Notes: generated by a model from the sequence alone, not told the origin. A stretch of DNA of 64,000 nucleotides from Planctomycetota bacterium (GCA_965223265.1 OZ244999.1:1856001-1920000), one strand, 5' to 3'; positions 4,290 to 45,906 are shown, counted from the first letter of the stretch. Program-made: numbers and translations.

Positions 4290-5342
4290 TCAGCAAGCGT
4301 TTTGCTGACGCCAGATCTCCAATTGTGGCGCCAGAGAGTCGGGGCTTGCCGTGCCGGTCGTGCCGATCTGCTGCACGGTCAACGAGGCGACGAGGTTGCC
4401 AACAACCGCTGCCTCCGGGAGCGTCGCGCCGCAGGAGAGCGCGAGCACCGTTCCGGCGGTAGCGCTGTCGCCCGCTCCCGTTGGGTCAATCTCGCCGTCG
4501 ACTCGGACACCCGGCACGCGTGTCCAATCGGGGTCGCTAACGATCATGCCGTCAGCGCCGAGGGTGACAACGATGGGGGCCTCGTTGCGTTCCCGTAGGG
4601 CGCGGGCCGCACCTTCGATGTCTGAACCTGAGACCGCCGATCCCGGCGTGGGATTCTCTTCCCCGACAACTTCGAACTCATTCGGCTTGACGATCACTCG
4701 GTGATATTCACCGATGCGTCTCCGGCTGTCGGCCCAAAAAATCACGCCCGGAGATCGTTTGGCATGGGCGATCACAGCGTCGCGGACAGCCGCTGTCATC
4801 GCGCCGCAGTCTCGCTCCTCGACTTGATCCATAACGACAAGAGCGTCGATGTTGCTGATCAGGTCTGTGAGGGAGGTGATGATCTTCTCAGCAATTTCCG
4901 GCGGAGTGGCGGTCCGATTCTTGGTGTCGTAGCGCGAATGCTCTGCCGCCAAGGTCGGGTCGCCCAGGTTACGGGGCTTGAGATAGGTCGGCGTGTGGCG
5001 CGCGGCGGCGACGTGAAGGTGGTCAGTCGAGCATCCGACGCGCGCCAGAGCCTGTCGCAGGTCGAACCCCTCGCCGTCGTCACCGCTGAAGCCGACCGCG
5101 TGCAGCGTGCCGGCACGGAGCGCTGACAGATTCGACACGACCGTTCCGGCAGCGCCCGGGCTCGTCCGAACGTTGACGACCTGGTGGCATGGCTTCCCTG
5201 TCTCGACGCTCACCTCCTCAAGCTGGGTGTCGATCTCAAGATACTTGTCGAGGAAGAAGTCCCCGACGACGGCGATGCGTCGCGTCGGGAACTGAGCCAC
5301 GAGCTGTTCGAGACGCTCGTGCGAGAGAGCCGCTGTCTTCAT
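4290..5342 (-). CDS. PfkB-family carbohydrate kinase (HldE/RfaE kinase-domain-like)
   Basis: VVGDFFLD, PGAAG, KPNEFE, VTLGADG and DPTGAGDS motifs. Confidence 0.9.
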   Translation of the reverse strand: MKTAALSHERLEQLVAQFPTRRIAVVGDFFLDKYLEIDTQLEEVSVETGKPCHQVVNVRTSPGAAGTVVSNLSALRAGTLHAVGFSGDDGEGFDLRQALARVGCSTDHLHVAAARHTPTYLKPRNLGDPTLAAEHSRYDTKNRTATPPEIAEKIITSLTDLISNIDALVVMDQVEERDCGAMTAAVRDAVIAHAKRSPGVIFWADSRRRIGEYHRVIVKPNEFEVVGEENPTPGSAVSGSDIEGAARALRERNEAPIVVTLGADGMIVSDPDWTRVPGVRVDGEIDPTGAGDSATAGTVLALSCGATLPEAAVVGNLVASLTVQQIGTTGTASPDSLAPQLEIWRQQNAC

Positions 5343-11936: not shown

Positions 11937-12094
11937 AGCAGCCTGCCTGAAAAAGTCATTCGGCCGAGAAGCCGGCCTCTTCGCACCCAGCTCGACCGCG
12001 TCAATACTCGTCGTATACCTTATTGAAGAGGGCTCGGAGATTACCTGCGTTTGCCGCGGCCGATCTGGACGCGAAATGGCCAAACTCGAGGCTA
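11937..12094. repeat. Chimeric repeat with family A left end and body and a family B right end
   Basis: Starts AGCAGCCTGCCTGAAAAAGTCATTCGG and ends CGCGAAATGGCCAAACTCGAGG. Confidence 0.75.
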
Positions 12095-14812: not shown

Positions 14813-14870
14813 GCCTCCGATTTGGCCATTTCGCGTCGAGCCTGCTGGCAGCGGCAGGGAGCGCGAGGCA
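14813..14870. repeat. Family B repeat, partial copy
   Basis: TTTGGCCATTTCGCGTCGAGCCTG...GGAGCGCGAGGC matches the end of the 26269-26527 copy. Confidence 0.6.
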
Positions 14871-26268: not shown

Positions 26269-26527
26269 ACCTCGAGATTGGCTATTTCGCGTCGAGCCTG
26301 GGAACCCCAGGAGCGTCGAGGCCAAGGAGTGACTCGGGCGCGATCCGCTCGGGATGGCGAGGGACCGGCGCAGGCATCGGCGCTTCTAACCTAACGCTAG
26401 GGTTCTCTCGAGGCCGGACAGAAGTTTTTGAACACGCACAAGTGCCCTCAGGGTAAAAAAGTCGAGAAGGCCTGTGAGCCCCGGCAAACTCGTCCGGCGA
26501 GGCCGACGCGAAATGGCAAAACTCGAG
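26269..26527. repeat. Family B MITE-like element, complete ~260-bp copy
   Basis: Ends CTCGAGATTGGCTATTTCGCG...CGCGAAATGGCAAAACTCGAG; the body matches 42727-42970 (inverted) and 45722-45850. Confidence 0.82.
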
Positions 26528-37281: not shown

Positions 37282-38751
37282 ATGCCTTCGACACCTTCCA
37301 AATGCAGCGGGTACGAATCGTCACTTGGGTGGGGGCGCCGGCGTTTTCTCAGCAGCTTCGGGATGGGGCTTGGAACGCTCGCTTTACTTGATTTGGAGCG
37401 CTCGGCGTGCAGTGCTGCGGTGCGGCCTGGAGTTTCAGCGAATGACGATCGTCTGCAGCCGCACTTTGCGCCGAAGGCGAAGCGCATCATCTATCTCTTC
37501 CAGAGTGGGGCGCCCTCGCAACTCGATCTGTTTGACAACAAGCCGCTACTCAATGCGAGACACGGCACCGAATTGCCCGATGAGGTCCGTCGTGGGCAGC
37601 GACTGACTGCGATGTCCGGAAACCAAGCTTCTCTGCCGCTTGCGGGATCACCATTTCAGTTTCGGCAACACGGCGAAAGCGGCGCGTGGCTCAGCGAAAC
37701 TCTGCCGCATACCGCAGCCGTCGCCGATGATATTTGCTTTGTCAAGTCGATGCACACTGAGGCCATCAACCACGGTCCCGGCGTGACGTTCTTACAAACA
37801 GGATCCCCGTTTCCGGGGCGGCCAAGTATGGGCGCGTGGATTCATTACGGGCTCGGGTCACTGAACGAGAACTTGCCGACTTTCGTCGTTTTGGTGACCA
37901 AGAACAAGGGCGGACAACCGCTTGTCTCGCGCCTCTGGGGCAGCGCATTCCTTGCGTCGAAGTATCAGGGGGTGCGGTTTCGCTCAGGAAAAGACCCCGT
38001 TCTTTACCTCAATAACCCTGACGGTATTGACCACAAGAGTCGACGGCTGACGCTGAATCGACTGCGTGATCTGCACGAGATCCTTTTGGACCGCACGGCG
38101 GATCGTGAGATCGAGGGGCGCATTGAACAGTATGAGCTGGCGTTTCGAATGCAAAGCGCGATTCCTCACGTCGCGGATTTACAATCTGAGCCAGAATCTG
38201 TGATCAAGGAGTACGGTGAGGATGCGCGCACGCCGGGGAGCTTCGCGGCCAATTGTCTTTTAGCTCGCCGGCTCGCCGAACGTGGTGTGCGATTCATACA
38301 GCTCTACCATCCAGGCTGGGATCAGCATGGCGGTTTGAAGCGTGGCGTGGAACGTCAGTGCAGGGAAACAGATCAGGCGTCAGCCGCGCTCATCCGCGAC
38401 CTGAAGCGAAGGGGACTCCTCGATGACACGCTGGTCGTGTGGGGGGGTGAATTCGGACGGACGAACTACTGTCAAGGGAAGTTGACGAAGACTCAATTCG
38501 GTCGCGATCACCACCCTCGCTCGTTCACGATTTGGCTCGCTGGGGGGGGAGTTAACGCGGGGACGACGTACGGTGCAACAGACTCGTATGGCTACAACGC
38601 GGTCGATGACCCCGTTAACGTGCACGATTTGCATGCGACGCTGCTCCATCTGCTAGGCCTCGATCACGAGCGATTGACCTACAAGCACCAGGGGCGGTGG
38701 TACCGTCTCACGGATGTCCACGGTCGTGTTGTCCGCGGGATCCTGAGCTAA
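37282..38751 (+). CDS. DUF1501-domain protein (Tat signal)
   Basis: RRRFL, AKRIIYLFQSGAPSQLDLFD, WDQH, GEFGRT and GRDHHP motifs. Confidence 0.93.
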   Translation: MPSTPSKCSGYESSLGWGRRRFLSSFGMGLGTLALLDLERSACSAAVRPGVSANDDRLQPHFAPKAKRIIYLFQSGAPSQLDLFDNKPLLNARHGTELPDEVRRGQRLTAMSGNQASLPLAGSPFQFRQHGESGAWLSETLPHTAAVADDICFVKSMHTEAINHGPGVTFLQTGSPFPGRPSMGAWIHYGLGSLNENLPTFVVLVTKNKGGQPLVSRLWGSAFLASKYQGVRFRSGKDPVLYLNNPDGIDHKSRRLTLNRLRDLHEILLDRTADREIEGRIEQYELAFRMQSAIPHVADLQSEPESVIKEYGEDARTPGSFAANCLLARRLAERGVRFIQLYHPGWDQHGGLKRGVERQCRETDQASAALIRDLKRRGLLDDTLVVWGGEFGRTNYCQGKLTKTQFGRDHHPRSFTIWLAGGGVNAGTTYGATDSYGYNAVDDPVNVHDLHATLLHLLGLDHERLTYKHQGRWYRLTDVHGRVVRGILS

Positions 38752-38764
38752 CCTCGAGTTTGGC
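38751..38764. repeat. Left 14 bp of a family B element split by the group II intron
   Basis: ACCTCGAGTTTGGC joins CATTTCGCG (42727) to rebuild the family B terminal repeat. Confidence 0.8.
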
Positions 38765-39268
38765 GTACGCCGTGAAAAGGCACGAATCCTCAGTGGGTGA
38801 GAATCCCACCCGGCAACTGGTCGCTCCAGCCGGTAGCACCCGGAGCGACGGAGGGAGGTAACGACCTACGTCGAAGTACTTCAGGAAAAGGGTCGCTGGG
38901 CGACCCAGCGAGCACGCAGGCCGTAACGTGAGTGAACGCCGAGCAGGCCTCGAAAGAGTCAATGCAGGAGCCGACCCTCCGCTAAACAGGGGAAGGCTGC
39001 CAACCAATGGACGAGAAGAGCGACAGCATCCAATGGTTCCTGCCGGGGTAGTGGCGATGGCATGCGTGCCAACGGAGATTCGATGCAACACGGGAAACCC
39101 CGACGGTGGCGCGGCGTGAGCGCCAAACCGGAGCTCCGCGAGGAGCCGGCCGGGCCGTCCGGGGCGGCGGATAGGCCCGTAGTACCGCAGACGCCGGGTA
39201 ATGCCGGTTGAGGGAAGGGGCCTTAGTTCAAGGTTAACGTCAGAAGCCATGAGAGCCGGGAGATTGGC

Positions 39269-40576
39269 ATGAGCCTACCAACCCCACCAAAGGTTCGGAC
39301 GCTGCAGGCGGCGTTACATACCAAAGCGAAGGAATCGCCCAACTTTCGTTTCTATGCCCTCTACGACAAGGTGTATCGACCGGACGTTCTCGAACACGCC
39401 TACCGCTGCTGCCGTGCCAACGGTGGAGCCACAGGAGTGGACGGCGAGCGTTTCGAAGACATCGAGAGAGAAGGTCTCGAACGGTGGTTGGACGAACTGA
39501 CGAAGGAGCTCAAAGAGAAGAGGTATCGTCCGCAAGCGGTTCGCCGGGTGTATATTCCGAAGGCGAATGGTAAGCAGCGGCCGTTGGGTATCCCAACGAT
39601 CCGCGACCGTGTCGTGCAGACGGCAGCCGTGCTGATCCTCGAAGCGATATTCGAGGCAGACCTGCAGCCGGAGCAGTACGCCTACCGTCCCAACCGTAGC
39701 GCTTTGGAGGCCATAGGCAAGATCCACTCGCTACTGAATACTGGCCACACAGAGGTCATCGACGCAGACTTAAGCGGCTACTTCGACACGATCCCACACA
39801 CCGAGCTCATGAAATCGGTGGCACGTCGCATCAGTGATAAACAGGTACTGCATCTGATCAAGATGTGGCTTGTCGCGCCGGTAGAAGAGACGGACGAGCG
39901 GGGTCGAAAACATCGAACGACGCGCAATAAGGACGAGGGCCGGGGCTGTCCGCAAGGCGCTCCGATCTCACCGCTGCTTAGTAACCTCTACATGCGACGA
40001 TTCATCGTGGGTTGGAAGGTGCTCGGGTACCAAAGGCGCTTGCGCGCCCGAATTGTCAACTACGCCGACGACTTCGTGATCTGCTGTCGCGACAGTGCCG
40101 ACGAGGCCATGCGCGTGATGAGGAACATGATGCAACGGCTGAAGCTGACGGTGAACGAGTCAAAGACACGTCAATGCAGCGTCCCGGACGAAACGTTCGA
40201 CTTTCTGGGCTACACGCTGGGAAGGTGCTGGTCGCCTAAGACGGGTCGAGCCTACATCGGCACACGCCCGTCCAAGAAGAAGGTCGTGGGGCTTTGCCGC
40301 ACGATTAGTGAAAAGACCAGCCGTCGCTGGAGTGCCCGCGACGCCAAGGAGCTCGTAGCTGAACTCAACCGAACCATGATCGGATGGGCCAACTACTTCC
40401 GCCTTGGGCCTGTTAGCAAGGCCTATGCCACCGTGGATTTCCACGCCGGCAACCGGCTGCGTCAGTGGTTGTGCCGTAAACACAAAGTGCCGAGTCGAGG
40501 AACGTCACGATTTCCCGACACATACCTGCACCGCGTACTCGGTCTAGTCCGAACTTCCAAAGAAAGGCACTCGTAA
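39269..40576 (+). CDS. ltrA: Group II intron reverse transcriptase/maturase without endonuclease domain; C-terminus displaced by the IS
   Basis: [41 protein letters not shown] and GWANYF motifs; the native tail LTERTRNFPWAKV* continues at 42523-42568. Confidence 0.93.
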
Positions 40577-42516
40577 ATTCAGCGCAGGTCCGGCTTTGCG
40601 ATGCACCGCAATCGTCAATTCTGACTACATGCGCTCGGTCAGCGACACGCGCAGTAAACGAAGCGCTTGTCGCTGTTCGGGCGACGGCTCGGTGATCACC
40701 TCGAACTCAGCCTTGGAGCTCAGCGGGGAAGCGACGCGATTGCGAGCGATCGTGGCCAAGTCCTGCAGCAGGGTTCGAAAACTATGGGCACACTTGCCGT
40801 CGAGAGTGCGCTTGGTCCAGTCCTTCCACTTCGCCATCTCGGAGCGAACGGCTGGTGTCACCGGCGACTTTCTCCGGTTCACTTCGTCGGCGAACTCATC
40901 GTGAAAGAGCATCGGCTTTAGCGCTTGTTGCATGTGCCACTGGACGTAGTAGGCGAGCATGCAGAGAAATACGTGAGCTCTCACACGTTTCTCTGCATAG
41001 TGAAAAATTGGACGCACTTCGAGATCGACCGTCTTCATACTGCGAAAAGCCCGCTCCACCTTGCTGAGGCTTTTGTATGCCCTCACGGCTTGCCGGGCAC
41101 TTAGCTTTCGTTTCGGCACAGTCGTTCGCAGGACGTAGAATCCGTCCAAGGCGGCTTCACGTTCGATTCGTGGTGCATTGCGCCGGAAACGAAACGTGCT
41201 CTCTGCGATCGTCAGGTCAAACAGCTTACCCACCTTGAATCGACCTATGACTTTACCGACTCGAATGCCAATCTTCGCCCGGCTCCGAAGTCTTCCTGCT
41301 TTGACTGCGGCAGCGACTTTCCAGAGGTGCTTTTCGGTAGCCTGCAGCAGCTCCTCGCGCTTTCTCCTGCGCTCTTCGGCCAGGAGAGGGTTACGGCAAA
41401 CGATGAGGCGTTCGTTGGGAAACGAAGGATCATCTATTTCGGCGAGATTCTGCTGGTCAAAGAACTCAAGCTGAATGCTTCCCGACTCTTTCAGCTTTTG
41501 GATCTGGGGCGCTCGCAGCGCTGTGATCCAGTCCACACCGTCAATGTCTTTGAGCTCTTCGCGAATTCGCGCCGTGGTGATCATGCCGCGATCTCCCACG
41601 AGAGTCATTCGCGACAGTTCGAAATCTTCTCGAAGTCGCTTCACCTGGGCTCCGAGAGTCTTGGGGTCTGCAGTGTTCCCCTCAAACACTTCGACAGAAA
41701 CTGGGCAGCCGTCTTTGTTCGTCAAAACGCCAAATACGATCTGCGCTTTATGCTTTTTCTCGTCGCGGCTGTGACCCCGTCTTGCCAGCGAACAGCAGCG
41801 GCCTTCAAAGTACGTCGAAGTTAAATCGTAGAGCGTTAGCTCACCGTCTTTGAGGTGACGCTTGGCCAACTTGACTTGGATCTTTCTCTGACGCTCAACG
41901 AGCCAATCCATCGCCTTGTAGAGATCGTTTTCATCTACGTTCTCCAGCCCCAGTAGCTGCGGAATCGTCGTCGCCTTCCAGGCCCTTGTTGTAGCTAGCT
42001 TCGACTGTGGAGAAATAATCCTCGCGGCGATCATCGCCAAGGCGCACTGGCGCTCACTACTCGCCCGCCCATCAAGGATCGTGTCGAGACCAAGATTGCG
42101 CATGGTGCCCAGCACCGCGGCGACGTGACCGTGGCTGCGAGTGGAGAGAATCTTGAAAGCGTCACTCGCAGAGACGAACTGCTCTCCCTTCAAGGCGCGG
42201 CGAACGAGGTCGATCACTTCCAGCGGCAAATGAGAGAGATTGGCCAGCGTGACGTTACGAACCTTCTTGCCGTCGCGATATGTGCGTCGAAGGAGGTGGC
42301 TCTGATAGGTCTTACCCTTGTATTTTCTCTTCGTTGTGACCACATGGGCCGATCCACCTCTCTTCGCCATGAGCAGCATTATGCGCATCTTGACGTGAAA
42401 GGCAAGGAGGAATCCTCCATTTTAGTGACTACATCTCGGGGCGCAAAAAACTCTGCAACCTCCTACGTTGTCAATCCTTGCGGCCGAAACCCGCTCAGGC
42501 AAGCGTGGAAGTTCGG
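40549..42516 (-). mobile_element. IS1634-family insertion sequence, 1968 bp
   Basis: Perfect 11-bp TIR CCGAACTTCCA/TGGAAGTTCGG; 6-bp TSD TCTAGT (40543-40548 and 42517-42522). Confidence 0.92.
40625..42388 (-). CDS. IS1634-family DDE transposase
   Basis: LLRRTYR.GKKV...TLANLS, YDLTSTYFEG, VGDRGM, VERAFRSMK and RPIFH...RVRAHVFLCMLAYY. Confidence 0.93.
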   Translation of the reverse strand: MRIMLLMAKRGGSAHVVTTKRKYKGKTYQSHLLRRTYRDGKKVRNVTLANLSHLPLEVIDLVRRALKGEQFVSASDAFKILSTRSHGHVAAVLGTMRNLGLDTILDGRASSERQCALAMIAARIISPQSKLATTRAWKATTIPQLLGLENVDENDLYKAMDWLVERQRKIQVKLAKRHLKDGELTLYDLTSTYFEGRCCSLARRGHSRDEKKHKAQIVFGVLTNKDGCPVSVEVFEGNTADPKTLGAQVKRLREDFELSRMTLVGDRGMITTARIREELKDIDGVDWITALRAPQIQKLKESGSIQLEFFDQQNLAEIDDPSFPNERLIVCRNPLLAEERRRKREELLQATEKHLWKVAAAVKAGRLRSRAKIGIRVGKVIGRFKVGKLFDLTIAESTFRFRRNAPRIEREAALDGFYVLRTTVPKRKLSARQAVRAYKSLSKVERAFRSMKTVDLEVRPIFHYAEKRVRAHVFLCMLAYYVQWHMQQALKPMLFHDEFADEVNRRKSPVTPAVRSEMAKWKDWTKRTLDGKCAHSFRTLLQDLATIARNRVASPLSSKAEFEVITEPSPEQRQALRLLRVSLTERM

Positions 42517-42726
42517 TCTAGTCCGACTCACTGAACGGACGCGCAACTTTCCGTGGGCGAAAGTATGAACCTTGTCCGAAAGCCGGATGCGGGAAAACCG
42601 CACGTCCGGTTTGATGAGCGGGAGGTGGAAACAGGGCACGGTCTGAGGCTATTTGGCACCGGCAGACGAAAGAGCCGGAAACGGAAAGTCCTTGGCCTAA
42701 ACCACTGCGCCACCTCTCGACTCTAC

Positions 42727-42970
42727 CATTTCGCGCCGGCCTGGCCGGACGAGTTTCGCGGGAATTCAAAGGCCCTTTCGACTTTTTAGTACCCTGAGAA
42801 CCCTTGTGCATGTTCAAAAACAACTCCTGTCCGGCCCTTCGGGGAATGCCAGGAGCGCCGATGCCTGCGCCCGTCCTCCGCCACGACCCGAGCGGGATCG
42901 CGCCCGAGTCGCTCCTTGGCCTCGACGCTCCTGGCGCTGGCAGGCTCGACGCGAAATGGCCAAATTCGAG
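42727..42970. repeat. Remainder of the family B element hosting the intron
   Basis: Reverse-complement match to 26269-26527; ends CGCGAAATGGCCAAATTCGAG and is followed directly by a family A end (42971-42990). Confidence 0.82.
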
Positions 42971-43454
42971 AGCAGCCCGTTGAAAAAGTGCGCAAAGGGA
43001 TTTCGGACGTCGACGACGATTCGCTGAATTTCGTTCGACATCTCGAGGCGTAGAATACGCAAGAACTTGTTCGATGGAACCATCGTCGCCCACACGGCGG
43101 GATTCTTTGTTGCCTCTGTTGCCGTTCGGAAACTCTTCTATTCTTGAACAGAAGGCAACAGAGGTGACGAAGGGGGGCGTCTCGGCGCTCTTTGCGTCAA
43201 CTCCCTTTCCAAATCGGACGGATGGGTTTTCAACCGCCCTGCTAACGCTGGACAGTAGCCTCGCGGTGGGCGCTGGCGATGCGGCTCGTGGCACACCTCG
43301 CGAAGACGGCGGTCGGCATCGTGAGTGTGAGACGGGTTCTCCCTGCAGTGTGGGGTTCGCTGAGTTGGTGCGGTGTGGCGACTTGTTCTGGTCTCAAGGG
43401 ATTGCGAGAATGATCACTTCTGCCACTGGTTCCCTGAAAGATTGAGGAAAGCGC

Positions 43455-45721: not shown

Positions 45722-45906
45722 GGCGTTCCCCCAAGGGCCGGACAGGAGTTTTTGAACACGCACCAGGGCTCTCAGGGTACAAAAAAGTCGAAAGGGCCTT
45801 TGAATCCCCGCGAACCTCGTCCGGCCAGGCCGGCGCGAAATGGCCAAACTGGATGAGGATTTGGACGAGCGAAGCCGAGTCCAAATCCTGAGTTCAACTC
45901 GAGGTT
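45722..45906. repeat. Family B half copy with a hairpin inserted in its terminal repeat
   Basis: GGCCGGACAGGAGTTTTTGAAC...CGCGAAATGGCCAAACT [45 bp] AACTCGAGGTT. Confidence 0.72.

Follow-up and report, generated by a model that had tools for sequence, protein, structure and literature searches.

Why does a group II intron sit inside the very tip of a small repeated element, only twelve bases from its end? The question is raised by a locus in a Planctomycetota bacterium (GCA_965223265.1 OZ244999.1:1856001-1920000). The stretch of DNA analysed, called the window below, is 64,000 nucleotides (nt) long and lies within one 9.18-Mb contig. All genome-wide counts come from this same 9.18-Mb genome, and positions are those of the window unless a genome position is named. 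Within the window, the interval 38765-42726 interrupts one terminal inverted repeat (TIR) of a miniature inverted-repeat transposable element (MITE). Very probably this reflects a habit of the intron rather than an accident: an endonuclease-less mobile intron of type IIB would retrohome into the outermost 13 nt of a TIR that is common to an insertion sequence (IS) of the IS701 family and to MITEs of about 253 bp.

The identity of the interval can be read from its ends and its ribozyme. It has GTACG at its 5' end and CTAC at its 3' end; as RNA, GUACG and CUAC correspond to the GUGYG-like 5' end and the AY 3' end looked for in group II introns. Rfam models of ribozyme domain I and of domains V and VI match inside it (Table 1). 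When the 12 nt before the interval, CTCGAGTTTGGC, are joined to the sequence after it, CATTTCGCG..., they rebuild a 21-mer, CTCGAGTTTGGCCATTTCGCG, whose inverted partner lies at 42950-42970 with one mismatch. A first-pass annotation of the window had placed an intron in the TIR of a dispersed MITE-like repeat, and the Rfam matches, the rebuilt 21-mer and the nature of the host family all bear this out. It had also claimed that removing 38765-42726 restores a family element. This is correct, but from one CTCGAG to the other the element is 256 bp long; the 258 bp originally given had included two flanking bases. The ends of the intron were likewise placed rightly, although an IS1634-family element nested inside the interval had gone unmentioned.

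The 21-mer is found throughout the genome. It occurs 85 times exactly and 182 times at up to 4 mismatches, where about 2 matches would be expected by chance according to our own arithmetic. At up to 2 mismatches there are 126 matches, as against 0 for a reversed control pattern. From inverted pairs of the 21-mer, 43 elements can be delimited; they are 228-269 bp in length and most commonly 253 bp. A perfect 5-bp target duplication, with GCTAG, CTAGC and TTAGC among the sequences seen, flanks 29 of the 43 elements; when the left flank is offset by one base in either direction, the count is 0/43. Many other TIR ends stand alone or come from sub-families whose interiors differ. The duplication of the window element itself is not intact (CTAAC versus AGCAG). 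The same TIR family appears elsewhere in the window at 12070-12090, 14815-14835, 26271-26527 and 45834-45854, as members or solo ends, none of them intron-bearing; 26271-26527 is a complete MITE of 257 bp.

The parent of these MITEs can be named with the help of the 13-nt sequence into which the intron is inserted. A scan for this motif found four elements of 1449 bp, 100% identical to one another, with ends CTCGAGTTTGGCCATGGA... and each with a perfect 5-bp duplication. They encode a 443-amino acid (aa) transposase of the IS701 family (NF049999, 348 bits, cut-off 170). Because the 1449-bp element shares its first 16 TIR bases with the MITE, has target duplications and encodes a transposase, the host repeat is a MITE family derived from an IS701-family element, with a live parent in the same genome. 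Other places where the parent was sought were rejected. Unpaired TIR sites gave host genes only, and TIR pairs 2371 bp and 1039 bp apart enclose host open reading frames (ORFs) and no transposase.

A second repeat end, TTTTTCAACGGGCTG, is far more abundant, with 417 copies at up to 2 mismatches. It was noted at 42971-42990 of the window, at 249-400 of one locus (L001) and genome-wide. The repeat of which it is part is a long hairpin, the cause of a spurious sub-threshold Rfam miRNA match at 249-361 of that locus. This repeat end is a favoured insertion target of the IS701-family element and its MITEs, since CTCGAG lies within 14 nt after 38 of the 417 copies.

Where are the other copies of the intron? 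BLAST searches with parts of the intron found four full-length copies in the genome and one internally deleted remnant of 372 nt. These are designated c1 (the window copy) to c5 (the remnant). The flanks of all five agree: CTCGAGTTT(G/A)GC precedes the intron and C(A/G)(T/A)TTCGCGCC follows it, and in every case the insertion point lies between TIR bases 12 and 13. The comparison of all flanks had been set beforehand as the test on which the first-pass reading could fail. It gave the same TIR position in five of five copies and none in unrelated sequence.

The same junctions in all copies would also be produced if a single intron-bearing MITE had been copied by the transposase as a 2.2-kb composite, with no repeated homing, and the parent IS, of which there are four identical copies, is evidently active. 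The divergence of the hosts argues otherwise. The full-length introns are 98.6-99.95% identical (n = 4), and c1, c2 and c3 differ from one another by 1-2 nt in 1988, whereas the remainders of the host MITEs are 65.5-90.6% identical. The hosts of c4 and c5 even belong to different MITE sub-families with other internal sequence. Because the introns are near-identical while their hosts are this much less alike, the insertions go back to several independent homing events into already diverged MITEs; existing MITE copies were entered repeatedly, and not by co-transposition. An inserted intron also parts the 12 terminal nt of the TIR from the remainder of the repeat, and that end should then no longer serve the transposase. 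Spread as a composite is extremely unlikely.

How is this particular site recognized? Loci encoding relatives of the intron protein were collected for comparison (80 loci, 56-72% identity, many phyla). The 5' ends of the introns were mapped in 68 of them, and 3' ends too; an alignment of domain I joins 59 relatives with the window intron, giving 60 sequences. The first-pass annotation had proposed that the loop GCTAAAC pairs with the last 7 exon bases, GTTTGGC, as exon-binding site 1 (EBS1) with intron-binding site 1 (IBS1). The pairing is exactly as described, with 7 bp, one of them G-U, over TIR bases 6-12. The loop can be identified as EBS1 because it covaries with the exon and no shuffle matches the observed helix. 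Among about 60 homologues, the homologous loop changes together with the last 4-7 bases of the 5' exon, giving matched loop/exon pairs such as GCTTCTG/CAGAAGC, TTTTGTG/CACAAAA, GGGT/ACCC, CCC/GGG and CCTCC/GGAGG. By exon position, the EBS1 columns of the alignment pair in 53/60 sequences at -1, 52/53 at -2, 59/60 at -3 and 51/60 at -4. A helix anchored at -1 has a mean length of 4.98 bp. Reassigning the exons to introns at random lowers this to 3.85 +/- 0.14, and 0 of 2000 such shuffles give a mean as high as the one observed. The sole natural variant of the site, GTTTAGC in c5, converts the G-U pair to A-U.

The base after the insertion point is recognized separately. Examination of domain I for EBS3 had been proposed together with that for EBS1, and EBS3 proves to be G39051 (intron nt 287). 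In 49/49 sequences its column pairs with exon position +1, and the 8 cases with a base other than C at +1 all covary. In the RNAalifold consensus, G39051 falls unpaired within an internal loop of 2 nt. The 3' exon is therefore read by a single EBS3-IBS3 pair, in the manner of IIB introns.

A third contact is seen most clearly in the relatives. Their EBS2 consists of four nt in the loop GAAAA(GGAC)GAUG; in 35 of the 60 sequences these pair 4/4, in a fixed register, with exon positions -13 to -10. Matched variants include GGUC/GACC, UGCC/GGCA, GGAU/AUCC and GGGC/GCCC, and a mean as high as the observed one arises in 87 of 5000 shuffles. Two further candidates for EBS2 were rejected. CGAGG (intron nt 375-379) is a GCGA-tetraloop hairpin that is conserved in all homologues without covariation, and CGGGGU, beside EBS3, pairs inside the ribozyme with a conserved GCCUCG in the consensus fold.

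The target read by the RNA is thus CTC..GTTTGGC/C, where the slash marks the insertion point, and takes in precisely the 13 terminal nt of the TIR. IBS1 and IBS3 together form an 8-nt motif with 500 occurrences in the genome, 116 of them in TIRs. For the motif CTC..GTTT(G/A)GCC there are 128 empty sites, consisting of 105 in the list of TIRs, 14 more with the full CTCGAGTTT(G/A)GCC (including 8 ends of the parent IS) and 9 unrelated ones. Since just 9 of the 128 empty sites are unrelated to the TIR, RNA pairing is enough to explain why all copies lie in TIRs.

Several observations weigh against homing guided in this way. The loop of the window intron that corresponds to EBS2, GAGUC, pairs poorly. 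In four copies it forms 3 bp (GAG/CUC, positions -12 to -10), and in c2 it forms 4 bp, one base out of register with the homologues. Just about 4% of all sites hold the intron, and these include 0/8 ends of the parent IS, though all 8 carry the 13-nt target. The four full-length insertions, whose hosts begin with the common-family sequence, are all at the CCGG end, while empty sites are divided into 41 CCGG and 44 TCGA; with p = 0.125 this is not significant, and the host of c4 diverges further in. The earlier suggestion of up to two sites per repeat accordingly holds for the motif, which is present in both TIRs, but insertions are seen at one end only. A G at position +2 (42728 in c1) is found in 3/5 occupied sites as opposed to 6/105 empty sites (Fisher p = 0.0036). 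This enrichment is not accounted for by RNA pairing and may reflect a contact of the protein or the age of the host copies. Lastly, just 3/5 copies are clearly co-directional with the replication fork, and 49/105 empty sites are co-directional as well. The cumulative GC skew is lowest near 7.95 Mb and highest near 3.52 Mb, so that c1, c3 and c5 run with the fork, c2 lies at the skew maximum, and c4 is opposite, about 95 kb from that maximum. The orientation of the copies fits, without demonstrating, targeting of the lagging-strand template.

Some of these points would suit a different kind of recognition. Group IIC introns read the shape of DNA, and here a hairpin formed by the two TIRs of a MITE in single-stranded DNA, not the TIR sequence, might be the signal. 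Pairing by EBS2 is weak in the window intron, and the occupied sites are all in MITEs, none being at the 8 ends of the 1.45-kb IS, in which the two TIRs would not readily fold back on each other. The closest solved reverse transcriptases (RTs) by sequence are also IIC enzymes (7uim, 172.5 bits; 6ar1, 150.6 bits). Yet 0/8 IS ends compared with 5 of about 125 sites is not a significant difference. The insertion site is within the would-be stem, 12 nt from its base, and not just after a hairpin; the pattern of group IIC, a site immediately downstream of a stem-loop and no EBS2, does not fit here. EBS1 pairs over 7 bp, EBS2 covaries in the relatives, and one relative (L032, described below) occupies the same TIR offset in a 2.1-kb IS. 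Domain V begins with CGC in IIC introns, but with AGC in the window intron. Recognition of a hairpin is, on this evidence, very unlikely, and reading of the TIR sequence by base-pairing is preferred.

The protein is known from intact ORFs of 441 aa with a YADD motif in c2, c3 and c4. It contains RVT_1 (125.6 bits) and GIIM (57.4 bits) and nothing else, and matches TIGR04416 with 350.7 bits (cut-off 300); the RT and maturase (X) domains expected of a protein encoded in domain IV of a group II intron are thus present. With no endonuclease domain present, the first-pass description of the intron as endonuclease-less is upheld. Literature searches gave no class placement for this intron lineage, and its relatives in the PDB are equidistant.

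Put together, these parts suggest a mechanism. Once spliced out, the intron RNA would base-pair with DNA through EBS1 (GCUAAAC) on TIR bases 6-12 and the EBS3 G on base 13, aided by a weak EBS2 contact, GAG/CUC, on bases 1-3. It would then reverse-splice between TIR bases 12 and 13, and its own reverse transcriptase would copy the inserted RNA. Priming would presumably come from the replication fork, because the protein is without a nuclease. Insertion should be free of cost to the host because more than 100 sites lie in non-coding DNA, while the affected end of the transposon would probably be disabled.

The intron is probably still mobile, as is suggested by near-identical introns at one kind of site in diverged hosts. 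Alternatively, the copies could be relics of an extinct burst with nothing mobile now, and the idea of a renewable homing site would then not apply at present. Of about 130 suitable sites 5 are filled; an IS interrupts one copy, and another has lost EBS1 through an internal deletion. The small differences among c1, c2 and c3 and the three intact ORFs speak against such an extinct burst, as does a change at the 5' end of the ribozyme. Position 3 of the intron is A in the window intron and G in 59/59 aligned homologues, and all 68 homologues with a mapped 5' end begin with GUGCG. The window intron reads GAAGU where the Rfam consensus reads GAAGC. We take the two changes to be compensating changes of the epsilon-epsilon' pair, which would be a sign of selection on the ribozyme. 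The burst is rather unlikely to be over.

Relatives in other genomes offer a view of the same behaviour elsewhere. More than 500 encoded relatives were found in the genome collection. The closest, L024, L027 and L032, come from metagenome-assembled genomes (MAGs) of Pirellulales, Eisenbacteria and Betaproteobacteria; their proteins have 64-72% aa identity, and the introns share with the window intron the architecture of the ribozyme, a length of about 1.96-2.09 kb and the places of the EBS. In L024 (72%), CTAG is followed by CCCGCATATTTCA, the intron and CCCGTTTCTGC...; an inverted partner is present at 2 mismatches with CTAG on its far side, so that the intron lies 13 nt inside the TIR of a MITE of about 190 bp. 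In L027, CTAG and CCCGGACTATTCA precede the intron and CGAGCCCGCC... follows it. The partner is 141 nt downstream, two more copies lie within 6 kb, and the intron is again 13 nt inside the TIR of a MITE with CTAG on both sides. Finally, in L032 the intron stands between CTAG plus CCTGGATTTCCA and CG..., with the partner 2 kb away. It is 12 nt inside the TIR of a 2.1-kb IS, which encodes a 579-aa DDE protein with a weak IS1380-like match (42.6 bits, cut-off 180); no relative of this transposase is found in the window's genome, whose one IS1380-family gene has unrelated ends.

Further junctions repeat this spacing. A remnant from the same order (genome G012) has CTAG, CCTCGAGTTTCGC and then the intron start GTACG..., at 13 nt from CTAG, in a TIR near-identical to that of the window; six copies of this TIR variant occur in another genome (G028). 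L033, L034 and L038 show the same spacing from CTAG, TTAG or CTAA. The TIR sequences of the closest relatives differ from those of the window, and EBS1 and EBS2 differ to match. For instance, EBS1 of L024 can form 9 bp with CATATTTCA, G-U pairs allowed.

These cases allow a tentative generalization, which is somewhat more doubtful than not. A multi-phylum lineage of endonuclease-less IIB-like introns may have specialised on the outermost 12-13 nt of transposon TIRs, changing EBS1 and EBS2 with each new target while keeping the offset; five to eight junctions carry this lineage-wide reading. No short sequence in a genome is more conserved or more repeated than the tips of TIRs. If the reading is true, such introns would parasitise transposons and progressively disable MITE and IS ends, because every insertion splits a TIR.

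Other relatives show different surroundings. Dozens of them, of the Bradyrhizobium type (L036-L103, including many soil MAGs), occupy sites that read ATGTCCGCTTCGGGT/CCAAT.GCGG, and a search for an inverted partner out to 2.5 kb found none. Short inverted bases, TCCG...CGGA, surround the insertion point of these targets, which may be another dispersed repeat. The copy on plasmid pPL62-3 of Planctomyces sp. SH-PL62 (67.6%) has a different site sequence, which could not be linked to a TIR. Multiple intron copies also occur together in several loci. The 3' exon of L086 (3349 onward) begins with GTGCGCCGTG, the start of another intron copy in head-to-tail tandem; L098 has a second intron copy at 4651-4861, after the first or nearby; and an inverted partial copy lies upstream in L032 at 1361-1862.

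The nearest known system is RmInt2 of Sinorhizobium meliloti GR4 (class D, IIB; Toro laboratory, RNA Biol 2014). According to passages of that report, all copies of RmInt2 lie in the inverted repeats of ISRm17, and its mobility was shown experimentally (PMC4615759). Its authors point out that the repeats double the number of targets, with two per element on opposite strands, so that one is assured on the lagging-strand template (PMC4615759). RmInt2 recognizes its target through EBS1, EBS2 and EBS3; its EBS2 pairs in a relaxed way and is one base off in register (PMC4615759). The window intron resembles it in being endonuclease-less, in having all copies in transposon inverted repeats and in its weak, one-base-shifted EBS2.

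The two introns also differ in several respects. Hosts of the window intron are non-autonomous MITEs (5/5) of an IS701-family element and not the IS (0/8 ends), and just one of the two TIRs has been seen occupied. The EBS3/IBS3 pair is G-C in the window intron and U-A in RmInt2 (PMC4615759). The window protein is distant from those of rhizobial introns: among the best 5000 plasmid records, 50 of them from Sinorhizobium, all but 2 match at less than 60% identity; the figure is 31.9% for one Rhizobium plasmid, on which 22 places match.

Comparison can be extended to other bacterial introns, which are described in excerpts of two further papers as lying mostly in intergenic DNA or other mobile elements, with homing sites, terminators and attC as target types (PMC4424553, PMC12584367). 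RmInt1 of S. meliloti (in ISRm2011-2), E. coli introns and others within IS home by EBS/IBS pairing as here, and the endonuclease-less types among them depend on replication (PMC4424553, PMC12584367). Sites of the RmInt1 and E. coli type are in the body of the IS or in the transposase gene, with one per element (PMC4424553, PMC12584367), whereas the window intron is at the tip of the TIR. Like the group IIC introns at terminators and attC, the window intron has no endonuclease domain and resides in abundant non-coding repeats. Group IIC introns are described there as recognizing hairpins with a very short EBS1 and no EBS2 (PMC4424553, PMC12584367), in contrast to the 7-bp EBS1, the EBS2 of the lineage and the fixed site within the TIR arm that are found here.

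Literature searches found no paper on group II intron homing into the TIR of a MITE, the nearest being the RmInt2 report (PMC4615759). The novelty thus lies in the host, a MITE, in the IS701 family and in the phylum; the principle was already published for RmInt2 and ISRm17 (PMC4615759). The same applies to the proposal in the first-pass annotation that an abundant repeat end serves as a renewable and harmless homing site. Every testable part of it held, but, given the RmInt2/ISRm17 precedent in that source, the idea itself is not new.

The case leaves the current understanding of group II introns unchanged. It extends the RmInt2/ISRm17 strategy from IS to MITE derivatives and from rhizobia to Planctomycetota. 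It also provides a natural data set for target choice by an endonuclease-less intron: one closed genome has five occupied sites beside about 120 empty ones of near-identical sequence. As the parent IS, the MITEs and the intron are all intact in a single genome, target rules and strand bias are directly testable. For annotation, it explains a nest of about 4 kb and gives the positions of EBS1, EBS2 and EBS3 for a widespread lineage.

Table 1. Features of the locus (window positions) and related elements of the same genome (genome positions, marked as such).
Feature	Position	Strand	Basis and remarks
Upstream host gene, 489-aa ORF	37282-38751	+	ORF list; same direction as intron
5' exon, outer 12 nt of left TIR (CTCGAGTTTGGC)	38753-38764	+	IBS1 GTTTGGC at 38758-38764; weak IBS2 CTC at 38753-38755
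Group II intron copy c1	38765-42726	+	Rfam; 1988 nt of intron plus nested IS; 99.95% identical to uninterrupted c2/c3 with IS removed
Ribozyme domain I part	38791-38931	+	Rfam group-II-D1D4-4 RF02003, 91.5 bits (cut-off 49)
EBS2-homologous loop GAGUC	38956-38960	+	Homology with EBS2 of relatives; 3-4 bp, reaching exon positions -12 to -10 (or -13)
EBS1 GCUAAAC, terminal loop of domain I	38981-38987	+	Covariation; hairpin loop in RNAalifold consensus
EBS3, G in two-base internal loop	39051 (intron nt 287)	+	Covariation with +1; pairs with C42727
RT/maturase gene, first 428 codons	39269-40552	+	Cut by IS; frame continues into IS, stop at 40576 (435-aa ORF)
Left 14-bp direct repeat (TCGGTCTAGTCCGA)	40539-40552	+	From IS insertion; single copy in intact introns
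IS1634-family insertion sequence, 1960 bp	40553-42512	-	587-aa transposase gene at 40625-42388, minus strand
Right 14-bp direct repeat	42513-42526	+	From IS insertion
RT gene, last 13 codons and stop	42527-42568	+	Displaced by IS; compared with intact 441-aa ORF of c2
Ribozyme domains V/VI	42578-42726	+	Rfam RF00029, 45.4 bits (cut-off 40)
3' exon, remainder of host MITE	42727-42970	+	IBS3 = C42727; right TIR at 42950-42970
Intron copy c2	genome 3515664-3517651		BLAST; full-length
Intron copy c3	genome 5912928-5914915		BLAST; full-length
Intron copy c4	genome 3423872-3425859		BLAST; full-length
Intron remnant c5	genome 4285302-4285673		BLAST; 372 nt, internal deletion, without EBS1
Parent IS701-family element	genome 912112-913560; 2360117-2361565; 2374717-2376165; 3476018-3477466		13-nt motif scan

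The window copy itself forms a nest of three levels, an IS in an intron in a MITE, which extends over about 4 kb beside a host gene. The TAA stop of the upstream 489-aa ORF (38749-38751) falls within the left flank of the MITE, CTAAC, and the intron precursor could come from read-through transcription of this ORF. Around c3 and c4, the high G+C content produces open frames in excess of the likely flanking genes. The window intron, like all its homologues, has an insertion of about 70 nt in domain VI relative to the Rfam model of domains V and VI. The total intron length is about 1985 nt across the relatives.

Nearly half of the interval 38765-42726 is not intron at all: 1974 of its 3962 nt are the IS1634-family element and one copy of the 14-bp duplication that flanks it on both sides. 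The insertion cuts off the last 13 codons of the RT gene and moves domains V and VI 2 kb away. Copy c1 has been inactivated in this way and no longer encodes a full-length protein. In public contigs from 4 runs, the region 38300-43300 is fragmented, with breaks at repeats, and the empty-site allele was not seen in them, from which nothing follows. The sole well-supported joint in these contigs, from 40538 to 42513, is the IS-free form of the intron, which already exists elsewhere in the same genome; the remaining joints have short sides and may derive from other organisms.

The transposase of the nested element belongs to the IS1634 family (NF033559, 340 bits, cut-off 100). A second, identical full copy of this element is found at genome position 6866109-6868068, with an adjoining partial copy of 553 bp (together 6865552-6868068).

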